DNA of 17,301 nt from an uncultured archaeon (GTDB lineage Archaea; Asgardarchaeota; Hermodarchaeia; Hermodarchaeales; Hermodarchaeaceae), in NCBI GenBank assembly GCA_964347045.1, contig CAYFXC010000010.1, positions 1 through 17,301 on the forward strand, written 5' to 3'. Shown here one piece after another: positions 7,628 through 16,305 of this stretch. Numbering within the stretch: the stretch's first letter is position 1; every line of letters begins with the position of its first letter. The notes below the pieces were generated by a model, which worked only from the letters and a program-made list of their open reading frames with translations, was not told the origin of the DNA and searched no databases. The position numbers and the translations under genes are program-made.

Positions 7628-8947
7628 CTATTTCTTGATGTACCGTCGATAGACAAATCCTGCGATCGCTATGCCAACAACTATCGCAACGCTGATAATG
7701 ATGTACTCAAGGGGAACCGGTTCTGGTGGAGGAAGAGGAGTCGGAGCCGTCACAGAAACTCCTACATTCCAATCCCAGTTGAATATTTGCGTGAAGAAGT
7801 TGGCGACACCAGAATGCGTGATAATAACTCCAGCTTCACGATTCTCGTGGGTGGATTCGTAACTCCAATTTATGCTGGATATGAGTGTTTTGTCACCATC
7901 AACAATTACACCCTTGTTGTGAGTCCATCCAAAGTAGGTTTGATTTGAAAACCGAACTTCCACATTGTTAGCCAGGAACATTTCAGCTACTTCTTGCATC
8001 CCTGCACTACGATTATCCAACATGACTCTAGACGTAACGCCCCGTCCAGCCGCTGCTATAATAGCATCATTGAACTGGTTAGGAGCACCATTCCAATCCA
8101 TTTTGGAATACATTTGTTGAACATATAATGTGGAAGTGGCAGAGTTGATAAGGTCAAGGATAGCCGAGATATCATTGTCAGGTGAGAGTACACCTTGGAT
8201 ACTCATTGATCCAGTGAAAGTTTGGGAGGCGAATGGTGCAGGATATGAACCGGTATTTACGCCAGTACCGAAGTTGTCTTCATCACCGCTATCAGGAACG
8301 TATGGCTCAACGTTATCGAGAAGTAGATCATGTGTGAATGTATCATAGAAATAGTTCACTACATCGGGCTGTTCAATGACTACACCCCATTCTCTATTGC
8401 CAGCACTATTAGCAGGTGGTATTCCAGATTTTGCCCAGTTTGCACTTTGCACAACAACGACCTCTTGGTCGAAGATCATAAATTTCGCATGGGTGAATTC
8501 GAGGGAATCAGCTTCAGAATAGAAGAGTTGGAGGTTGGAACCAAAGGCGGCGCTTTGAGATAAGTTATAGAATGTGGCTTTTGTCCAGTGGCGTTCTGAT
8601 GGTGATGCCCATTTCCAAGATACAATGATCGTAATTTCCATGCTCCCATTACGAGCAAGGGCATCCCAAATTTCCTCTACTAGGAACCAATTGGTGAATG
8701 CATAGACCATGACTAACATTTCATTTTCCGTATTCTGTAACAGGTTTCTGACCACGGTATCGCTCGAGTCAGGTGACGAGAAACAGGTAACTGTTGCTGA
8801 ACCGGTGTAAGTTGTTGCTGGTTTGTCAAAGGCAGGAGGTTGGGCTTTAACAGTAATCAAAGTATTAGAGGTTGGTTGAAGGAACGACAGGGCCATGAAC
8901 CCGACTAGTAGGAAAATCAGGAATTGTTGAATGAGTATTCGGCGCAT
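7628..8947 (-). CDS. Surface-anchored phospholipase D-superfamily enzyme (two HKD motifs), 439 aa
   Basis: H153AKFMIFD...QSANW...NRE and H343NKGVIVD...SSINW...NRE; N-terminal signal peptide; C-terminal Pro-rich linker, TM helix and RRYIKK. Confidence 0.9.
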   Translation of the reverse strand: MRRILIQQFLIFLLVGFMALSFLQPTSNTLITVKAQPPAFDKPATTYTGSATVTCFSSPDSSDTVVRNLLQNTENEMLVMVYAFTNWFLVEEIWDALARNGSMEITIIVSWKWASPSERHWTKATFYNLSQSAAFGSNLQLFYSEADSLEFTHAKFMIFDQEVVVVQSANWAKSGIPPANSAGNREWGVVIEQPDVVNYFYDTFTHDLLLDNVEPYVPDSGDEDNFGTGVNTGSYPAPFASQTFTGSMSIQGVLSPDNDISAILDLINSATSTLYVQQMYSKMDWNGAPNQFNDAIIAAAGRGVTSRVMLDNRSAGMQEVAEMFLANNVEVRFSNQTYFGWTHNKGVIVDGDKTLISSINWSYESTHENREAGVIITHSGVANFFTQIFNWDWNVGVSVTAPTPLPPPEPVPLEYIIISVAIVVGIAIAGFVYRRYIKK

Positions 8948-9929: not shown

Positions 9930-10889
9930 TCAAATTACTTGTTCTTTGATGTATGGGACACCAATTGCTTTAGGTGGAATTGATCTTCGAATGATTCCAA
10001 GAGCGATGATAACACCAAGATAGGGAATCATGCGTAAGTACAAATTGAATGGGGCCAAGAAGCCTAATTCGGGTGTTACTTGGATAACAATCTTTAGACC
10101 ATCAAGAAAACCGAAAAACAATCCTGCCATTAGTACACCAAAAGGCGTCCAATTACCAAAAATAAGAGCTGCTAAAGCAATGAACCCCCGACCAGCAACC
10201 ATATTCCTACTAAAAGACGAGCCAAATCCGATTGAAAGATAGGCCCCAGCAAGACCTGAGAGACACCCACTAAGTATTACTCCAATCATTCGAGTAGTTT
10301 CAACATTGACACCTGCTGAATCAAGAGCGCTTGGGTCTTCGCCTGCGGCGCGTAGCCTTAGCCCGAATGAAGTTCTGTAAAGAATGAACCAGCAAATTGG
10401 GACTAGTGCAAACATTATGTATACAATTGGGGATTGGCTTCCGAACATGGGACCAAGGATTGGAACACCAAGAAGTGAAGGAATAACAATTTCAGGAATG
10501 GGAAGTACCGGGTCAGATACCCCTCGTTGTCCCCAAATAACAGAAAGCATTACCGTGGTGAATCCTGCGGCAAATATGATAATTCCTGTACCGCTTACAA
10601 TCTGATTTCCTTTCAGTTGTACAGAAACGAGGGCGTGAATTAGTCCCATCACACCTCCTATCAGAATAGCGTAGAAAACGCCAATCCATGGATTACCTGT
10701 ATAGTGACTGCCAGCTGCACCCATAAGGGCGCCCATCAACATCATACCCTCTAATCCAATGTTTACTACACCAGATCTCTCTGAAAACATTCCACCCAAT
10801 GCAGCTAAAATCAATGGTGTCCCCGCAATGAGGGTTGTATAGCCAATGATGCCAATAACGAGTACGAAATCGATTTGAACAGCCTGCAT
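9930..10889 (-). CDS. Nucleoside/sugar ABC transporter permease 2 (BPD_transp_2, YufQ/NupC-like), ~319 aa
   Basis: TPLILAALGGMFSERSGVVNIGLEG, FGLRLRAAGE, GRGFIALAALIFGNW. Start moved from 10994 to ATG 10889, which has a TAATG overlap with the upstream stop and a GGAGGTG SD. Confidence 0.9.
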   Translation of the reverse strand: MQAVQIDFVLVIGIIGYTTLIAGTPLILAALGGMFSERSGVVNIGLEGMMLMGALMGAAGSHYTGNPWIGVFYAILIGGVMGLIHALVSVQLKGNQIVSGTGIIIFAAGFTTVMLSVIWGQRGVSDPVLPIPEIVIPSLLGVPILGPMFGSQSPIVYIMFALVPICWFILYRTSFGLRLRAAGEDPSALDSAGVNVETTRMIGVILSGCLSGLAGAYLSIGFGSSFSRNMVAGRGFIALAALIFGNWTPFGVLMAGLFFGFLDGLKIVIQVTPELGFLAPFNLYLRMIPYLGVIIALGIIRRSIPPKAIGVPYIKEQVI

Positions 10890-12481
10890 TAGAACGCACC
10901 TCCTACAACTAGGCCTTTCCATCGCATTTGATAAAATGAAACAATGGAAGTTACAATTCCAATGATTCCTATGACTGCAACGGGAATACGCCAATTATTC
11001 CATAATATTAGAAAAGGAATAAATGAAAGTCCTAGTGAGGTAAAAATTGGTTCTAGGCTAGCAAACAGAACAGGGTTTGCAAAAACGATAACAAGTAATC
11101 CAATCGCAACAACTAGAGTGAGAATAGTACCCCACATATTCCCTCGCATCAGATAAACGAACGCAAGAATACCTAGAATTCCCAATAGGAAAATGAAAAT
11201 GATGTCTAAAGCTAATACCACAGTAATTAAGGGTAATCCGAGCATCAATGACTGGTTGGTAAGAGCTAGTAACAAAAGTAATTGAGTTGTTACAATGCCC
11301 AATGCAGCAAACCCGATAATCAATCCCATTAGAGAAGCTAAGAAGATTGGTGTAGCTCTTTTCCAATCGGCTTCAAGCCATTGAGCATATACACTACCCT
11401 TATCCGCAAGCCAAACGATGAGTTTGGGAGCGGCAACAAAGAGAATTATTAAACCTTGAATAACTCCAATCATTTCAATGGGAACTTGAGCTGTCACTTG
11501 CATCGAGATACTCCCGGCACGGAGTAAACCCAAAAAAATGGCACTAAACAAGGCACCAAATGGACTGTTGTTTCCTAAAACAGCGACTGTAATTCCATCA
11601 AATCCATACCCCGGTGAAAATCCTGCAACGAAACGACCGAAGGTTCCTAACACTTCACTTGCACCAGCTAAACCTGCAATGCCTCCACTAATTGCTAGGC
11701 TAAGAGCAAGCATCCGCTTTGAGTTGATTCCTGCAGTTTCTGCTGCTGTGAGATTTAATCCTACAGCTCGCATTTCAAATCCAAGAACAGTCTTATTGAG
11801 AAAATAGGCAACAGCTAATACTGTAAGAAGACCTAATAGGAAACCCATATGCAAGAAATTACTTCCAAATAGTTTTAGCAAGGCGGCGGTAGGTAAAATT
11901 GGGTAAGTCTGCGGATATGGGTTAACAGGTGTGAGATCCATGAGTGGTCCTGATGAAAGATATTGAACAATAATGAGGGCAATGAAATTCAACATTATTG
12001 TGGTTACAACTTCATGCGCACCGCGGTAAGCTTTGAGTAGACCAGCGATTAGGCCCCATAAACCACCAGCAATTGCAGCCACGAGAATAGCAATGATTGG
12101 GTGAATTACTATCGGCAAGACAACATAGGTTCCAATTACTGCGGCTGAAATAGCGCCCATTTGAAGTTGTCCTTCAGCACCGATATTAAACAAACCAGAT
12201 TTGAAAGCTAATGCAACAGCCAGCCCAGTGAAAATTAGAGGAGTTGCTCGCCAAAAAATCTGATCGGGATTTGATAGAGCCCCTCTTAGAAGTTCAAAAT
12301 ATGCAGAAAATGGATTAAATCCCAAGGCTAACATAAGTAAACCAGCGACAACAAGAGCAAGTAGTATCGAACCGATAGCCCACCCTAATTGACGTAAAAA
12401 TCCACTTAGCAATCGTTCACGGGAGGCTTTCACATCTTCCTTTAAAAGATCGGGATAATCCTCAATCGTTTTCTTTGCCAT
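10889..12481 (-). CDS. Nucleoside/sugar ABC transporter permease 1 (YufP/NupB-like) with a ~170-aa extra C-terminal membrane region, 530 aa
   Basis: ATPLIFTGL, GLFNIGAEGQ, HEVVTTIMLN, GFEMRAVG, GYGFDGITVAVLG. Further hydrophobic segments follow residue ~360. Confidence 0.9.
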   Translation of the reverse strand: MAKKTIEDYPDLLKEDVKASRERLLSGFLRQLGWAIGSILLALVVAGLLMLALGFNPFSAYFELLRGALSNPDQIFWRATPLIFTGLAVALAFKSGLFNIGAEGQLQMGAISAAVIGTYVVLPIVIHPIIAILVAAIAGGLWGLIAGLLKAYRGAHEVVTTIMLNFIALIIVQYLSSGPLMDLTPVNPYPQTYPILPTAALLKLFGSNFLHMGFLLGLLTVLAVAYFLNKTVLGFEMRAVGLNLTAAETAGINSKRMLALSLAISGGIAGLAGASEVLGTFGRFVAGFSPGYGFDGITVAVLGNNSPFGALFSAIFLGLLRAGSISMQVTAQVPIEMIGVIQGLIILFVAAPKLIVWLADKGSVYAQWLEADWKRATPIFLASLMGLIIGFAALGIVTTQLLLLLALTNQSLMLGLPLITVVLALDIIFIFLLGILGILAFVYLMRGNMWGTILTLVVAIGLLVIVFANPVLFASLEPIFTSLGLSFIPFLILWNNWRIPVAVIGIIGIVTSIVSFYQMRWKGLVVGGAF

Positions 12482-12486
12482 ACTAC

Positions 12487-14190
12487 TCAGTTCTCCCTTT
12501 CGGATTGTACTTCTTGACCTGCCATTAACAAACCAAGTTCTTGCTCATTCGTTGTTGCAGGATCTAATATTGCAGCGATTTGGCCAGCAAATAGCACCGC
12601 TATGCGGTCTGAAACACTTTGAATCTCATCTAAATCAGCAGAAACTAGGAGAATCCCAACTCCTTCATCCCGCATTTGCACGAGGACTTTGTGAATATAT
12701 TCTGTTGCACCCACATCGAGACCACGCGTTGGATGTGATGCAACAAGAACTCTTGGATTAAATCCTAAAATCCGAGCGACGATGAGTTTTTGTTGATTCC
12801 CTCCTGAAAGTGTACTAGCGGGTTCTTCTACATTCGTCATTCGGATATCAAATGCCTTTGCACGTTCTCCCGAATGTTTTACAATTTCAGGTTCATTGAG
12901 AAATGAGTTAGGAATTGGAGTAGGTATTGCAACCGCAGCCAATTTTGGCCCAAAGACGGAAGGAGGAAATGGTTGGAATCGATTCGAAGCGAAAGGTTCA
13001 CGGTAATGGCCTCCAAGAATTAGATTTTCTTTGATTGAGAAGTTTAGAATCAAGCCCCGTTGATGCCTATCTTGTGGTATAAATCCGACACCAATGTTTT
13101 GGATTCTTCGAGGACTACAATTTGTAATATTCTGTTCTCCAACCCAAACCTCGCCATCATTGATCTTTCGTAATCCTGTGATAGCTTGAACTAATTCAAT
13201 TTGGCCATTTCCTTCAACACCCGCAATTCCTAAAATCTCCCCTTCTTTAATCTCTAAAGATATTCCTCTAACAGCTTCTAATCCTCGATCATCTTTTACA
13301 TGTAGATTTCTAATTGCCATGATTGGATTTCCAGGTTTGGCTATAGTTTTTGCTACGCGGAATATTACGGGGCGACCGACCATCATTTCAGCAAGGGCTT
13401 CAGGTGACGTTTTCTTCTTTGGTACTGTTCCTACAAGTGCCCCATCTCGAAGAACGCTAATATAATCTGCGAGTGCCATGGGTTCACGTAATTTATGGGT
13501 AATTAGGATGATTGTTTTTCCTGCTTCCCGAAAAGTTTGAAGGGTTTCAAAAAGTTCATCAACTTCTTGTGGCGTTAACACTGCGGTGGGTTCATCAAGG
13601 ATTAGGATATCGGCTTTTCGATACAAGAGTTTAATAATTTCTACTCTTTGACGAAGTCCCACAGAAAGGTCTTGGATTTTGGCTTTAGGATCGATATTGA
13701 GTTTATTTTCTTCACCGATTCGACGAATTTCATCTTCTGCAGCCCTGTAATTCATGGGTTGAACTCGATCTAATCCACCCAATAACGATTGGCCTGCGTT
13801 TCGGAAAAAGCCTCTTGTAGGACTTTCTAATACCTTTCGTTTCTCGATTCGCTCGCTAAGGGTTAAATAGAGAGGTTCTGTGCCAAGAATGACATTTTCT
13901 GTTACGGTTAATGTGGGAATAAGCTTGAAATGTTGATGAACCATCCCGATTCCAAGTCGAATTGCATCTGCTGGTGATTTGAAATGAACCTCTTCACCCC
14001 GAATCTTGATTAGCCCAGAATCCATGGATAACAGACCATATAATATGTTCATGAGTGTGGTTTTTCCTGCGCCATTTTCGCCCAAGAGTCCATGAACCTC
14101 TCCCTCTGCTATTCGAAGGGTAATATCACGGTTTGCTTGTACTCCACCAGGAAAGGTTTTGTTAATATTTTCAAGCTCTATGACGTATAT
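12487..14190 (-). CDS. CUT2-family double-domain ABC ATPase (YufO/NupA-like), ~567 aa, probable ATA start
   Basis: Walker A GENGAGKTT, LSVG signature, ILDEPT, second domain GVEGNGQ/LSGGNQQK. The frame stays open 35 codons above the track start at 14085 (IYVIELENINKTFPGGVQANRDITLRIAEGEVHGL), up to ATA 14190. GGAGGT SD at 14198-14203; in-frame TAG at 14194-14196. Confidence 0.9.
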   Translation of the reverse strand: MYVIELENINKTFPGGVQANRDITLRIAEGEVHGLLGENGAGKTTLMNILYGLLSMDSGLIKIRGEEVHFKSPADAIRLGIGMVHQHFKLIPTLTVTENVILGTEPLYLTLSERIEKRKVLESPTRGFFRNAGQSLLGGLDRVQPMNYRAAEDEIRRIGEENKLNIDPKAKIQDLSVGLRQRVEIIKLLYRKADILILDEPTAVLTPQEVDELFETLQTFREAGKTIILITHKLREPMALADYISVLRDGALVGTVPKKKTSPEALAEMMVGRPVIFRVAKTIAKPGNPIMAIRNLHVKDDRGLEAVRGISLEIKEGEILGIAGVEGNGQIELVQAITGLRKINDGEVWVGEQNITNCSPRRIQNIGVGFIPQDRHQRGLILNFSIKENLILGGHYREPFASNRFQPFPPSVFGPKLAAVAIPTPIPNSFLNEPEIVKHSGERAKAFDIRMTNVEEPASTLSGGNQQKLIVARILGFNPRVLVASHPTRGLDVGATEYIHKVLVQMRDEGVGILLVSADLDEIQSVSDRIAVLFAGQIAAILDPATTNEQELGLLMAGQEVQSEREN

Positions 14191-14298
14191 CGCCTAGACC
14201 TCCAAGACATTGTGTAAAACTCACATAAACGCCAGATAGTGTAGTTTTCAGATGAAACTTGTATTTAACGTAATTGGCACAAACAACAAAGTAACATT

Positions 14299-14337
14299 AA
14301 AAAAAATAGAAAGGGGGGGCTTTGGAAAAAGCCACCC
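14299..14337 (-). terminator. Hairpin plus U-tract directly after the BMP gene (intra-operon terminator/stabiliser)
   Basis: Minus strand GGGTGGCTTT-TTCC-AAAGCCCCCC (9 of 10 pairs), then CTTTCTATTTTTTTT. Confidence 0.7.
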
Positions 14338-14339
14338 GA

Positions 14340-15458
14340 TTATTCAACCCATGGGAAAGTTACTGGTGGATCCAGAGTACCGTCGATAATATCTTGTTTT
14401 AGTTGTTCAACTGCAGCTTTCGCTGCTGGGTCGAGTTGTAGCAGACCGGGATTGTCTTCGTAGTCATGACCACCATTTGCCGTGTCAAAATTATTTATGC
14501 CAGCTGTAAATGTGTAGCCTTCTTGAGTCGCATCTCGGATAATGTTGTACGCAGCAACCTGGACATTCTTCAGTGCAGTCGTTAGACATACTGTTGGTGG
14601 TTGTGGATTATCTGGATCTGCAGTTCCCAGATACATCTGAGGTGAGTCCACACCCACTACCCAGATGGGACCCAATGTGGCATTATTAGATTTGCAACTG
14701 GCAAATACACCGAGACCCGATCGTCCCGCCGCAGCAAAGATGATGTCCACTCCAGCCGTATACATTCCGTCAGCGAGAAGTTGCGCTCCAGCGATATCAG
14801 TAAACCCTGCAGGCGTATCTGCGACATAGGCTACAGAAACGTTATTGCCACCAGCAGTGTTTGTTATTCCGAGTTCAGGTCGAGTGATGTTGGCTCCCCA
14901 GAAGAACCCGGCAGCGAATTTCCAGAGGAGTGGAATTCCACTCATTCCACCGATATAGCCAATTTTTCCTGTTTGGGTGTATGCTCCAGCAATAGCACCG
15001 GCAAGAGCACCAGCTTCTTCTTCATTGAAAAGCAACGATGCAACATTTGGATAGTTTGTTTCGTTAATGTATGAGTCGACGATGGCAAAATTCTGTCCTG
15101 GGAACTGTCCAGCCACAGTTTCCATAGCGACTTGTTGTGTGAATCCGACCCCGATTATGAGTTTATATGGTGTCAACCATTCAGGATGCATAGCAAAGTG
15201 TCTTAGGAAAGGCTCAAACTCTGCAACATCAGTTGGTTCAACCCACGTAAATGTGATATTGAAATCTGCAGCTGCAAGTGATGCACCCTCGAACACACCG
15301 TCGTTAAATGATTTATCACCGAGGCCTCCGGTAGCAAAGACAATTGCCACATCAAAAGGATTAGCTGGTTTGAGAAATATTGGTCCAAGAACGAAACCAG
15401 TGCCAGTACCGACGAGAAAGAAGATTAAAGCGACAGCGACTAATTGAATTCTTGACAT
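14340..15458 (-). CDS. BMP-family (PnrA/TmpC-like) nucleoside ABC substrate-binding protein, 372 aa
   Basis: GGLGDKSFND, IIGVGF, FAIVDS, GKIGYIGGM, DIIFAAAGRSGLG, VVGVDS. N-terminal TM anchor with no lipobox Cys. GGAGG SD at 15467-15471. Confidence 0.92.
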   Translation of the reverse strand: MSRIQLVAVALIFFLVGTGTGFVLGPIFLKPANPFDVAIVFATGGLGDKSFNDGVFEGASLAAADFNITFTWVEPTDVAEFEPFLRHFAMHPEWLTPYKLIIGVGFTQQVAMETVAGQFPGQNFAIVDSYINETNYPNVASLLFNEEEAGALAGAIAGAYTQTGKIGYIGGMSGIPLLWKFAAGFFWGANITRPELGITNTAGGNNVSVAYVADTPAGFTDIAGAQLLADGMYTAGVDIIFAAAGRSGLGVFASCKSNNATLGPIWVVGVDSPQMYLGTADPDNPQPPTVCLTTALKNVQVAAYNIIRDATQEGYTFTAGINNFDTANGGHDYEDNPGLLQLDPAAKAAVEQLKQDIIDGTLDPPVTFPWVE

Positions 15459-15466
15459 TACTAATT

Positions 15467-15550
15467 CCTCCTGATAAGCCCCATCAGGATCAGAAACCCT
15501 CTAAGACAGGAAGGCGTTAATCGTGATACCGAACCTTAGAAGCTTATCAG
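15467..15550 (-). promoter_or_regulatory. Candidate structured 5' leader of the nucleoside ABC operon
   Basis: Nested inverted repeats at 15542-15550/15471-15479 and 15535-15540/15500-15505, an alternative hairpin at 15483-15489/15469-15475, and an anti-SD at 15507-15513. Confidence 0.5.
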
Positions 15551-15572
15551 ATGCATGTGTAGAGATAATAAC

Positions 15573-15581
15573 TATATAAAA
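15573..15581 (-). promoter_or_regulatory. Archaeal TATA box for the ABC operon
   Basis: The minus strand reads TTTTATATA. Usual archaeal spacing puts the transcription start near 15550. Confidence 0.55.
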
Positions 15582-15711
15582 TATCTATCCATTTAGCCGT
15601 TAGATAGAAGTCAGTTTGTCAAACCCAAAAGACGATATAGATTTTGAACAATTTCCTTTTCAATAAAGTCCTATAATGTGGTTCAGATGTCATCTACAGA
15701 GAATCTCTTTG

Positions 15712-16305
15712 TTATATGGTGACAATCAAGCCACGGGATCCAACAGCCACAAGCTTTGTAATCCCTAGGCAATCAGTTTTTCCTTCCGATTCATGAACAT
15801 GCCCACTGTATATTGCCGCTGGTTGAACCTCCATTATGAAATCGCGGAGACTTTTATAACCAATGTGGCTGCCTCCCCAAGTTAAATCAACGTTTGTTCC
15901 AAAAGGTGGTGTATGAGTGCACAATACTAGGTTTTCTAGGTAATAGAACCGTTTCAGCATATGTTGAACCTTTTCATCGGTCAAGCCAAAAGGTAGACTT
16001 GGTTGACCGCCCCCCAACCCTGCATATGTTTTGCTCCCCAGAGTTACATATTCTCCATGTAGGTAGTGGAAAACCTCATGATCTTGGCAAAGCCATCGGA
16101 GCGCCTCGGTATCATCATGATTCCCAGGAATAAAATATACTTCCGTCCCGACATCAAGTGGTTCAAGAGCCTCAACGAGCCCTTTCCCAAAACTTACATA
16201 ATCGCCTAGTCCAAATCCCACTTCAACTTCTTTTAATTTGGTGCGAGTGCGTGTAATCGCGTGTTTGTCACCGTGAAGGTCTGAGAAAAAGAGAGCCCGC
16301 ATCAT
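15712..16305 (-). CDS. Calcineurin-like metallophosphoesterase (Icc-related), 197 aa
   Basis: All five motifs present: SDLHG, GD, GNHD, THTPP, GHVHE. Confidence 0.92.
   Translation of the reverse strand: MMRALFFSDLHGDKHAITRTRTKLKEVEVGFGLGDYVSFGKGLVEALEPLDVGTEVYFIPGNHDDTEALRWLCQDHEVFHYLHGEYVTLGSKTYAGLGGGQPSLPFGLTDEKVQHMLKRFYYLENLVLCTHTPPFGTNVDLTWGGSHIGYKSLRDFIMEVQPAAIYSGHVHESEGKTDCLGITKLVAVGSRGLIVTI

Follow-up and report, generated by a model that had tools for sequence, protein, structure and literature searches.

On the minus strand of the window (the whole 17,301-nt stretch analyzed here, C10:1-17301 of an 83-contig MAG, G000, from an Asgard archaeon of the Hermodarchaeia type), the gene for a Bmp/PnrA-family substrate-binding protein is preceded by a leader whose dominant fold is a single unbranched imperfect hairpin, a rod of ~80 nt. 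Substitutions in its helices among relatives are G-U-compatible transitions or are compensatory on the sense strand, which indicates that the leader structure is real and selected at the RNA level, and it is this comparison with relatives, rather than thermodynamics, that appears to establish the leader as a genuine element. We tentatively favor the reading that the leader is a largely static, 5′-terminal stem-loop that would stabilize the transcript and present the Shine-Dalgarno sequence (SD), and is probably not a metabolite-sensing switch. The initial annotation had proposed a structured, undescribed leader RNA on this strand, a claim borne out by helices under selection and by the Rfam scan that it named as a check, which matched no family in the whole window at gathering thresholds.

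The minus-strand gene order is a metallophosphoesterase (16305-15712), a 253-nt spacer, Bmp/PnrA (15458-14340), an ABC ATPase, and two permeases, and the leader sits in the spacer directly 5′ of the Bmp start codon. Leaders at orthologous loci follow three designs, designated W (the window and its sister species), L, and H; other relatives of the window genome are Thor-, Hermod-, and Promethearchaeota MAGs. The features of the locus, in the direction of transcription, are as follows.

15573-15590, minus strand: archaeal promoter, GGATAG (BRE-like) and then the TATA box TTTTATATA (15581-15573), read from the sequence
15549-15552, minus strand: predicted transcription start, from TATA spacing
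15539-15550, minus strand: 5′ strand of helix P1, CUGAUAAGCUUC (MFE fold, conservation, and covariation)
15529-15536, minus strand: 5′ strand of helix P2′, AGGUUCGG, with a conserved U.U mismatch (MFE fold and sister comparison)
15494-15528, minus strand: variable apical region with the hairpin GCCUUC/GAGGGU (15515-15510 with 15501-15496) (MFE fold)
15486-15493, minus strand: 3′ strand of P2′, CUGAUCCU (MFE fold and sister comparison)
15471-15482, minus strand: 3′ strand of P1, GGGGCUUAUCAG, ending on the first G of the SD (MFE fold, conservation, and covariation)
15467-15471, minus strand: SD GGAGG, 8 nt before the AUG (sequence and unpaired probabilities)
14340-15458, minus strand: Bmp/PnrA-family substrate-binding protein gene, first of an ABC operon (Pfam PF02608, E = 2e-37)

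The TATA box lies exactly where the initial annotation had placed it. The promoter string GGATAGATATTTTAT is identical in the sister species, and the L-type loci repeat GGATAG plus TTTTTA(A/T). Archaeal TATA boxes centre near -26/-27, and +1 is thus predicted at 15552-15549, with P1 beginning at 15550. In each of the designs, the basal helix has its first base 25-29 nt past the TATA box, so that the structure begins at the expected transcript start, and the 5′-terminal position of P1 is accordingly a prediction from TATA spacing. In each of the nine W and L leaders, the MFE fold leaves 1-2 nt overhanging 5′ of this helix.

Several other observations were made on the reading frames of the window. 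A six-codon uORF (AUG CAU CUG AUA AGC UUC UAA; 15556-15536, minus strand) overlaps the 5′ strand of P1 and is kept in the sister species with another stop codon; it probably starts just 5′ of the transcription start. As a main mechanism the uORF was rejected: its AUG at 15556 precedes the predicted transcription start by 2-4 nt, and neither the L nor the H type has such a frame. Within the operon, the Pfam match of the ABC ATPase ORF (12487-14085, minus strand, with 14086-14339 upstream) opens at residue 1 with profile position 17, and the true start is therefore expected upstream of the listed TTG, in a region with no canonical start in the ORF list. The first permease ORF (9930-12481, minus strand) is 530 aa, long for a BPD_transp_2 permease, and as listed overlaps the second permease ORF by ~100 nt. 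A further minus-strand gene (7628-8947) encodes a protein that has two PLD-like domains and weakly matches the C-terminal portion of TrmB, an archaeal regulator.

Counted from the predicted start, the 5′ UTR of this nucleoside ABC-transporter operon spans 15552-15459 (minus strand, ~94 nt). A 97-nt RNA from the predicted start at A15552 has an MFE of -30.0 kcal/mol (z = -2.2), with 27 of 1000 dinucleotide shuffles at least as stable, and a separate fold of 15456-15555 gave z = -2.44; the thermodynamic support for the leader alone is modest. P1 comprises 12 bp, namely a 9-bp outer stem followed by U-G, U-G, and C-G, the two G-U pairs thus lying toward its inner end. The outer stem is the one that the initial annotation had pointed out, CUGAUAAGC (15550-15542) with GCUUAUCAG (15479-15471); it is present, extends to the 12 bp given above, and is kept in relatives. 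Beyond an internal loop that sets GAU (15485-15483) opposite UA (15538-15537), P2′ forms a helix of eight positions with one U.U mismatch, and a 13-nt unpaired stretch separates P2′ from the apical hairpin. The leader also contains three CUGA(U) motifs and one UGAUGG string.

To place the rod within its genome, a screen was run on 534 SD-led genes with no long ORF in the preceding 115 nt. The Bmp leader ranked 12th by MFE and 36th by z among these upstream regions, for which the median z was ~0, and rods are therefore not a general property of upstream regions in this genome. The most structured upstream region in the screen, outside the window on the plus strand of the same contig (C10 of G000), precedes a gene start at 78593 (z = -6.3; 30 shuffles).

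The only close relatives of the window leader are those of the sister species (L016/L021 and L118-L124), in which Bmp is 87-89% identical; protein-based scans of genomes and metagenomes recovered nothing else above 57% identity, and the protein database contained one 87% cluster of five members that added only one further leader haplotype. MAFFT/RNAalifold misaligned P2′ in the resulting three W haplotypes, and the pairs were therefore read explicitly by script. The promoter, both helix strands, and the SD are conserved in the sister species. P1 carries two changes there, both giving G-U on the sense strand, and CUGAUAGGC/GCUUGUCAG remains fully paired as RNA with the DNA palindrome lost. In P2′, the two sister haplotypes together differ from the window by one double change, G-C to A-U, and by three changes compatible with wobble pairing. 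Also conserved are the U.U mismatch and the GAU loop, the strand opposite the loop reading UA in the window versus CUG in the sister, although this loop conservation is beyond statistical judgment because the window-type interior is known from only two species-level lineages. Even against the sister species, no alignment could be made for the apical 35 nt of the rod, where the sister forms another hairpin, or for the DNA 5′ of the promoter; neutral sites are thus saturated between the two, which argues that the helices are under selection.

The more distant L-type loci (L125, L085, L087, L126-L131, and L133; Bmp 50-60% identical) are syntenic, with the metallophosphatase gene upstream and DUF362 beyond it where the flank reaches. 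Their leaders start with AACUGGUGGAC and end with G(U/C)CUAUCAGGAGGA, and their basal helix is the same P1 as that of the window. In alignment A3, 95% of P1 cells are paired, compared with 24-52% with slid partners, and five of nine pairs vary, two of them by double changes at positions 7 and 8 (A-U to G-C and G-C to A-U). Covariation among orthologous Bmp leaders, which the initial annotation had named as a check, was thus found in P1, though its shuffle control was not significant (104/500), given that just three lineages contribute. No alignable sequence is common to the interiors of the window group, L125, and the L085 group, and all three fold as a rod despite these differences. Within the L-type interiors (L125:897-1003:+; L085:334-425:+; L126-L131), the string GAAGUYGYGGCU is reminiscent of the H-type core described below, and an internal CUCCUGAU of L125 is the perfect complement of AUCAGGAG at the SD.

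In the dominant fold of the window leader, GGAGG is paired at its first G only and the SD is ~70% open, with base-by-base unpaired probabilities of 0.01, 0.57, 0.97, 1.00, and 1.00; the mean unpaired probability of the SD was 0.68-0.80 in nine of nine W and L leaders. The junction of AUCAG with GAGGA is invariant in both types, and P1 always stops exactly at the SD. The initial annotation had built its translational switch on competing pairings, which can all be located in the sequence but are energetically remote from the rod at -30.0 kcal/mol. The local SD hairpin (UCCUGAU, 15489-15483, with AUCAGGA, 15475-15469) is formable, in the sister species as well (UCUUGAU/GUCAGGA, seven of seven pairs), but reaches only -22.3 kcal/mol when enforced. 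The anti-SD CUUCCUG (15513-15507) is present opposite CAGGAGG (15473-15467), but this pairing reaches only -20.0 kcal/mol and has no counterpart in the sister species. Similarly, the strings of the inner stem (UCUAAG, 15540-15535, and CUUAGA, 15505-15500) exist, but the stem is absent from the MFE fold, gives -21.5 kcal/mol when enforced with the outer stem, and is without a sister counterpart. Both SD-covering alternatives are thus 8-10 kcal/mol worse than the rod, a difference that a ligand would have to supply. Folding against shuffled controls gave modest support to a structured leader, the SD-covering forms lie far from the minimum, and the switch logic itself was not supported, given a stable fold that exposes the SD and an interior that is unalignable.

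In 11 of 14 other genomes from the GTDB genus, the same metallophosphatase gene is followed, at the orthologous position, by a different leader, the H type, with three further examples from G001 and metagenomes (loci L074-L084, L094, and L132; e.g., L007:1360-1473:+). Each member folds singly into one common four-helix unbranched rod, with which RNAalifold agrees, and in the model-based alignment 88.7% of cells pair, compared with 41-53% with slid partners. Helix P2 of this type shows double changes in all four modeled pairs, and none of 500 shuffles reached the observed score. The core, UCAGAAAU-AA-GUCGGCUCAA...AUUUCUGA, is nearly invariant while Bmp diverges down to 46% identity; an 8-bp helix and an 11-nt segment are kept almost unchanged. 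In the basal helix, AGCUCUYU is paired to the 3′ half of the SD and the AGC that follows, leaving the SD only 0.06-0.44 unpaired. A covariance model, R1, built from ten same-genus leaders, found exactly one copy per genome in those 11 of 14 genomes, always before Bmp. R1 had no match in G000 or G014, nor in the window at E ≤ 10, and was thus unusable for aligning the window and sister leaders; the core string UCAGAAAU-AA-GUCGGCUCAA is likewise absent from the window leader. Rfam returned no match on 11 related loci, and none for the H-type leader.

The H-type and window leaders are alike in their orthologous position, homologous promoter, single copy per genome, and unbranched rod running from the predicted 5′ end, and both contain the strings UCGG and UUUCUGA; they differ in that only the H type has the nearly invariant core and the occluded SD. 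The common UCGG and UUUCUGA strings, the GAAGUYGYGGCU of the L type, and the promoter suggest that W, L, and H derive from a single ancestral leader, with the core subsequently lost in the window lineage. The conserved core and SD occlusion of the H type further suggest that the ancestral element was regulatory; the H-type leader looks regulated, and would make a better candidate for a sensor or riboswitch, or for a protein operator, than the window leader.

Conserved Bmp leaders of ~80-90 nt were also seen in Thorarchaeota (e.g., L024, L025, L033, L058, L086, and L101; L036, L040, L046, L052, and L102). One group reads AACCUYGGGG-hairpin-CCCNUGGUCGGUUC-loop-GAACCUUUGCAAGGAG, and another, AAGUCGAGA...UCUCGGCCUAAUGCAUUAGGAG, carries a mini-hairpin across the SD. 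These leaders look like a pair of hairpins, possibly closed by a helix joining the 5′ end to the SD; this closing helix showed no covariation in a quick alignment.

For the window leader, our tentative reading as a static stem-loop envisages that P1 would clamp the first transcript nucleotides to the segment ending at the first G of the SD, leaving GAGG and the AUG single-stranded immediately after a stable helix. Such a 5′-terminal stem-loop could shield the mRNA 5′ end against 5′-end-dependent decay, and could keep the strong SD of a binding-protein gene in high demand open and in a defined setting. Such a role fits what evolution has kept: a clamp joining the 5′ end to the base just ahead of the SD core, one small loop, and helicity, with the interior sequence left free. 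Decay machinery of this kind is plausible from the three beta-CASP ribonuclease genes in the genome, a family that includes archaeal 5′-to-3′ exonucleases. Protection of the 5′ end alone, however, fails to explain why P1 ends exactly at the SD, or why the GAU loop and U.U mismatch have been maintained.

In the main rival, which we consider unlikely, an RNA-binding protein or sRNA reads the rod and alters translation or decay with nucleoside supply; possible targets are the GAU/UA loop, the U.U mismatch, or the CUGAU repeats. In the W group the GAU loop, the mismatch, and the P1 and P2′ strands are conserved while the apex varies, the near-invariant helix and 11-nt segment of the H type look like sequence-specific recognition, and one copy per genome fits a dedicated regulator; against this, the window has no candidate regulator gene linked to the operon, and neither the loop nor the mismatch is common to the L-type leaders. 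Nor is a k-turn geometry conserved. The initial annotation had raised L7Ae binding from CUGA motifs, and the three motifs are indeed there, but a k-turn (L7Ae, box C/D-like) was rejected by inspection, with no 3-nt bulge and no conserved GA opposite the GAU loop. A metabolite riboswitch, in which binding of a nucleoside or base would shift the leader between the rod and an SD-covering fold, is very doubtful here. The position, before the binding-protein gene of a nucleoside transporter, is typical of riboswitches; the structure is under selection, the AUCAG beside the SD has three possible CUGAU partners, and the local SD hairpin survives in the sister. The rod is, however, unbranched and without a junction, no pocket is conserved given interiors that differ among the window, the sister, L125, and the L085 group, and the anti-SD is absent from the sister. 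No Rfam 15 family was matched, including the purine riboswitch, and a search of 15300-15800 at E ≤ 10 gave only two wrong-strand chance matches.

Two further readings are each highly improbable. One is an RNA thermometer or other physical sensor, with the stability of the helix at the 5′ end and SD tuning translation with temperature; the helices are G-U-rich, including the two pairs at the inner end of P1, and in the basal helix of the H type CUCUUU pairs with the SD via G-U, but the window SD is open at 37°C and still outside the helix at 15°C, and rods of -30 to -46 kcal/mol are far too stable to melt physiologically. The other, also raised by the initial annotation, takes the 9-bp boxes as DNA operator half-sites, or as chance or a mobile-element remnant without RNA function. 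A perfect 9-bp inverted repeat does lie downstream of the TATA box, where archaeal repressors can act. Its arms are 62 bp apart, however, and those of the sister read CTGATAGGC and CTGACAAGC, which breaks the DNA symmetry and keeps the RNA pairing via G-U; the 9-mer occurs 12 times in the genome versus ~21 expected, with no second inverted pair. Broken symmetry, distant arms, and the lack of a regulon motif thus make a DNA operator unlikely, and orthologous loci retain the helix through compensatory changes. A mobile-element or repeat origin was rejected, the leader being single-copy in the genome.

To our knowledge, cis-acting RNA control is poorly charted in archaea, and a full-text literature search found no description of such an element in Asgard archaea. 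The locus provides this group with a concrete case of a structured 5′ UTR backed by comparison with relatives, together with a natural contrast at one orthologous locus between an SD-exposing rod (window and L type) and an SD-occluding, sequence-conserved rod (H type). For annotation, a riboswitch label is unwarranted for the window leader on present evidence. A broader proposal, decidedly unlikely in our estimation, is that the Hermod- and Thorarchaeia Bmp leaders constitute an Asgard-specific cis-regulatory RNA family that senses nucleoside supply via a metabolite or a dedicated protein, in which the H type would be the sensor-competent form and the window rod a derived variant still responding via its GAU loop and U.U mismatch. 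If true, this would, as far as we could find, give Asgard archaea their first described class of regulatory RNA.

Among known systems, the purine riboswitch (RF00167), with its 2′-dG, xanthine, and 8-oxoguanine variants, and the NMT1/xanthine motif share with the leader a position before a nucleoside-uptake gene. A resemblance to the purine riboswitch lies in GUUUCU, which, as the initial annotation noted, loosely recalls J2/3, and in a P1 that closes the 5′ and 3′ ends beside the SD; but the leader has no P1-P2-P3 three-way junction with conserved J1/2, J2/3, and J3/1 and no conserved pocket, its SD lies outside P1, its alternative folds are energetically remote, and the RF00167 model itself gave no match even at E ≤ 10. 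With k-turn elements the leader shares its three CUGA motifs and the UGAUGG string, but two of these motifs lie in Watson-Crick helices and the third runs from the end of P2′ into the GAU loop. The closest likeness to the stem-loop favored here is with the Escherichia coli ompA 5′ UTR and the Bacillus subtilis aprE leader, which are 5′-terminal stabilizing stem-loops of bacterial mRNAs. The window leader differs from them in belonging to an archaeon, in the ~80-nt length of its rod, and in a 3′ strand that ends exactly at the SD; like them, it has a helix predicted to start within a few nucleotides of the mRNA 5′ end, a stable helix upstream of the accessible SD of a highly expressed envelope or binding-protein gene, and an interior in which helicity rather than sequence is conserved.
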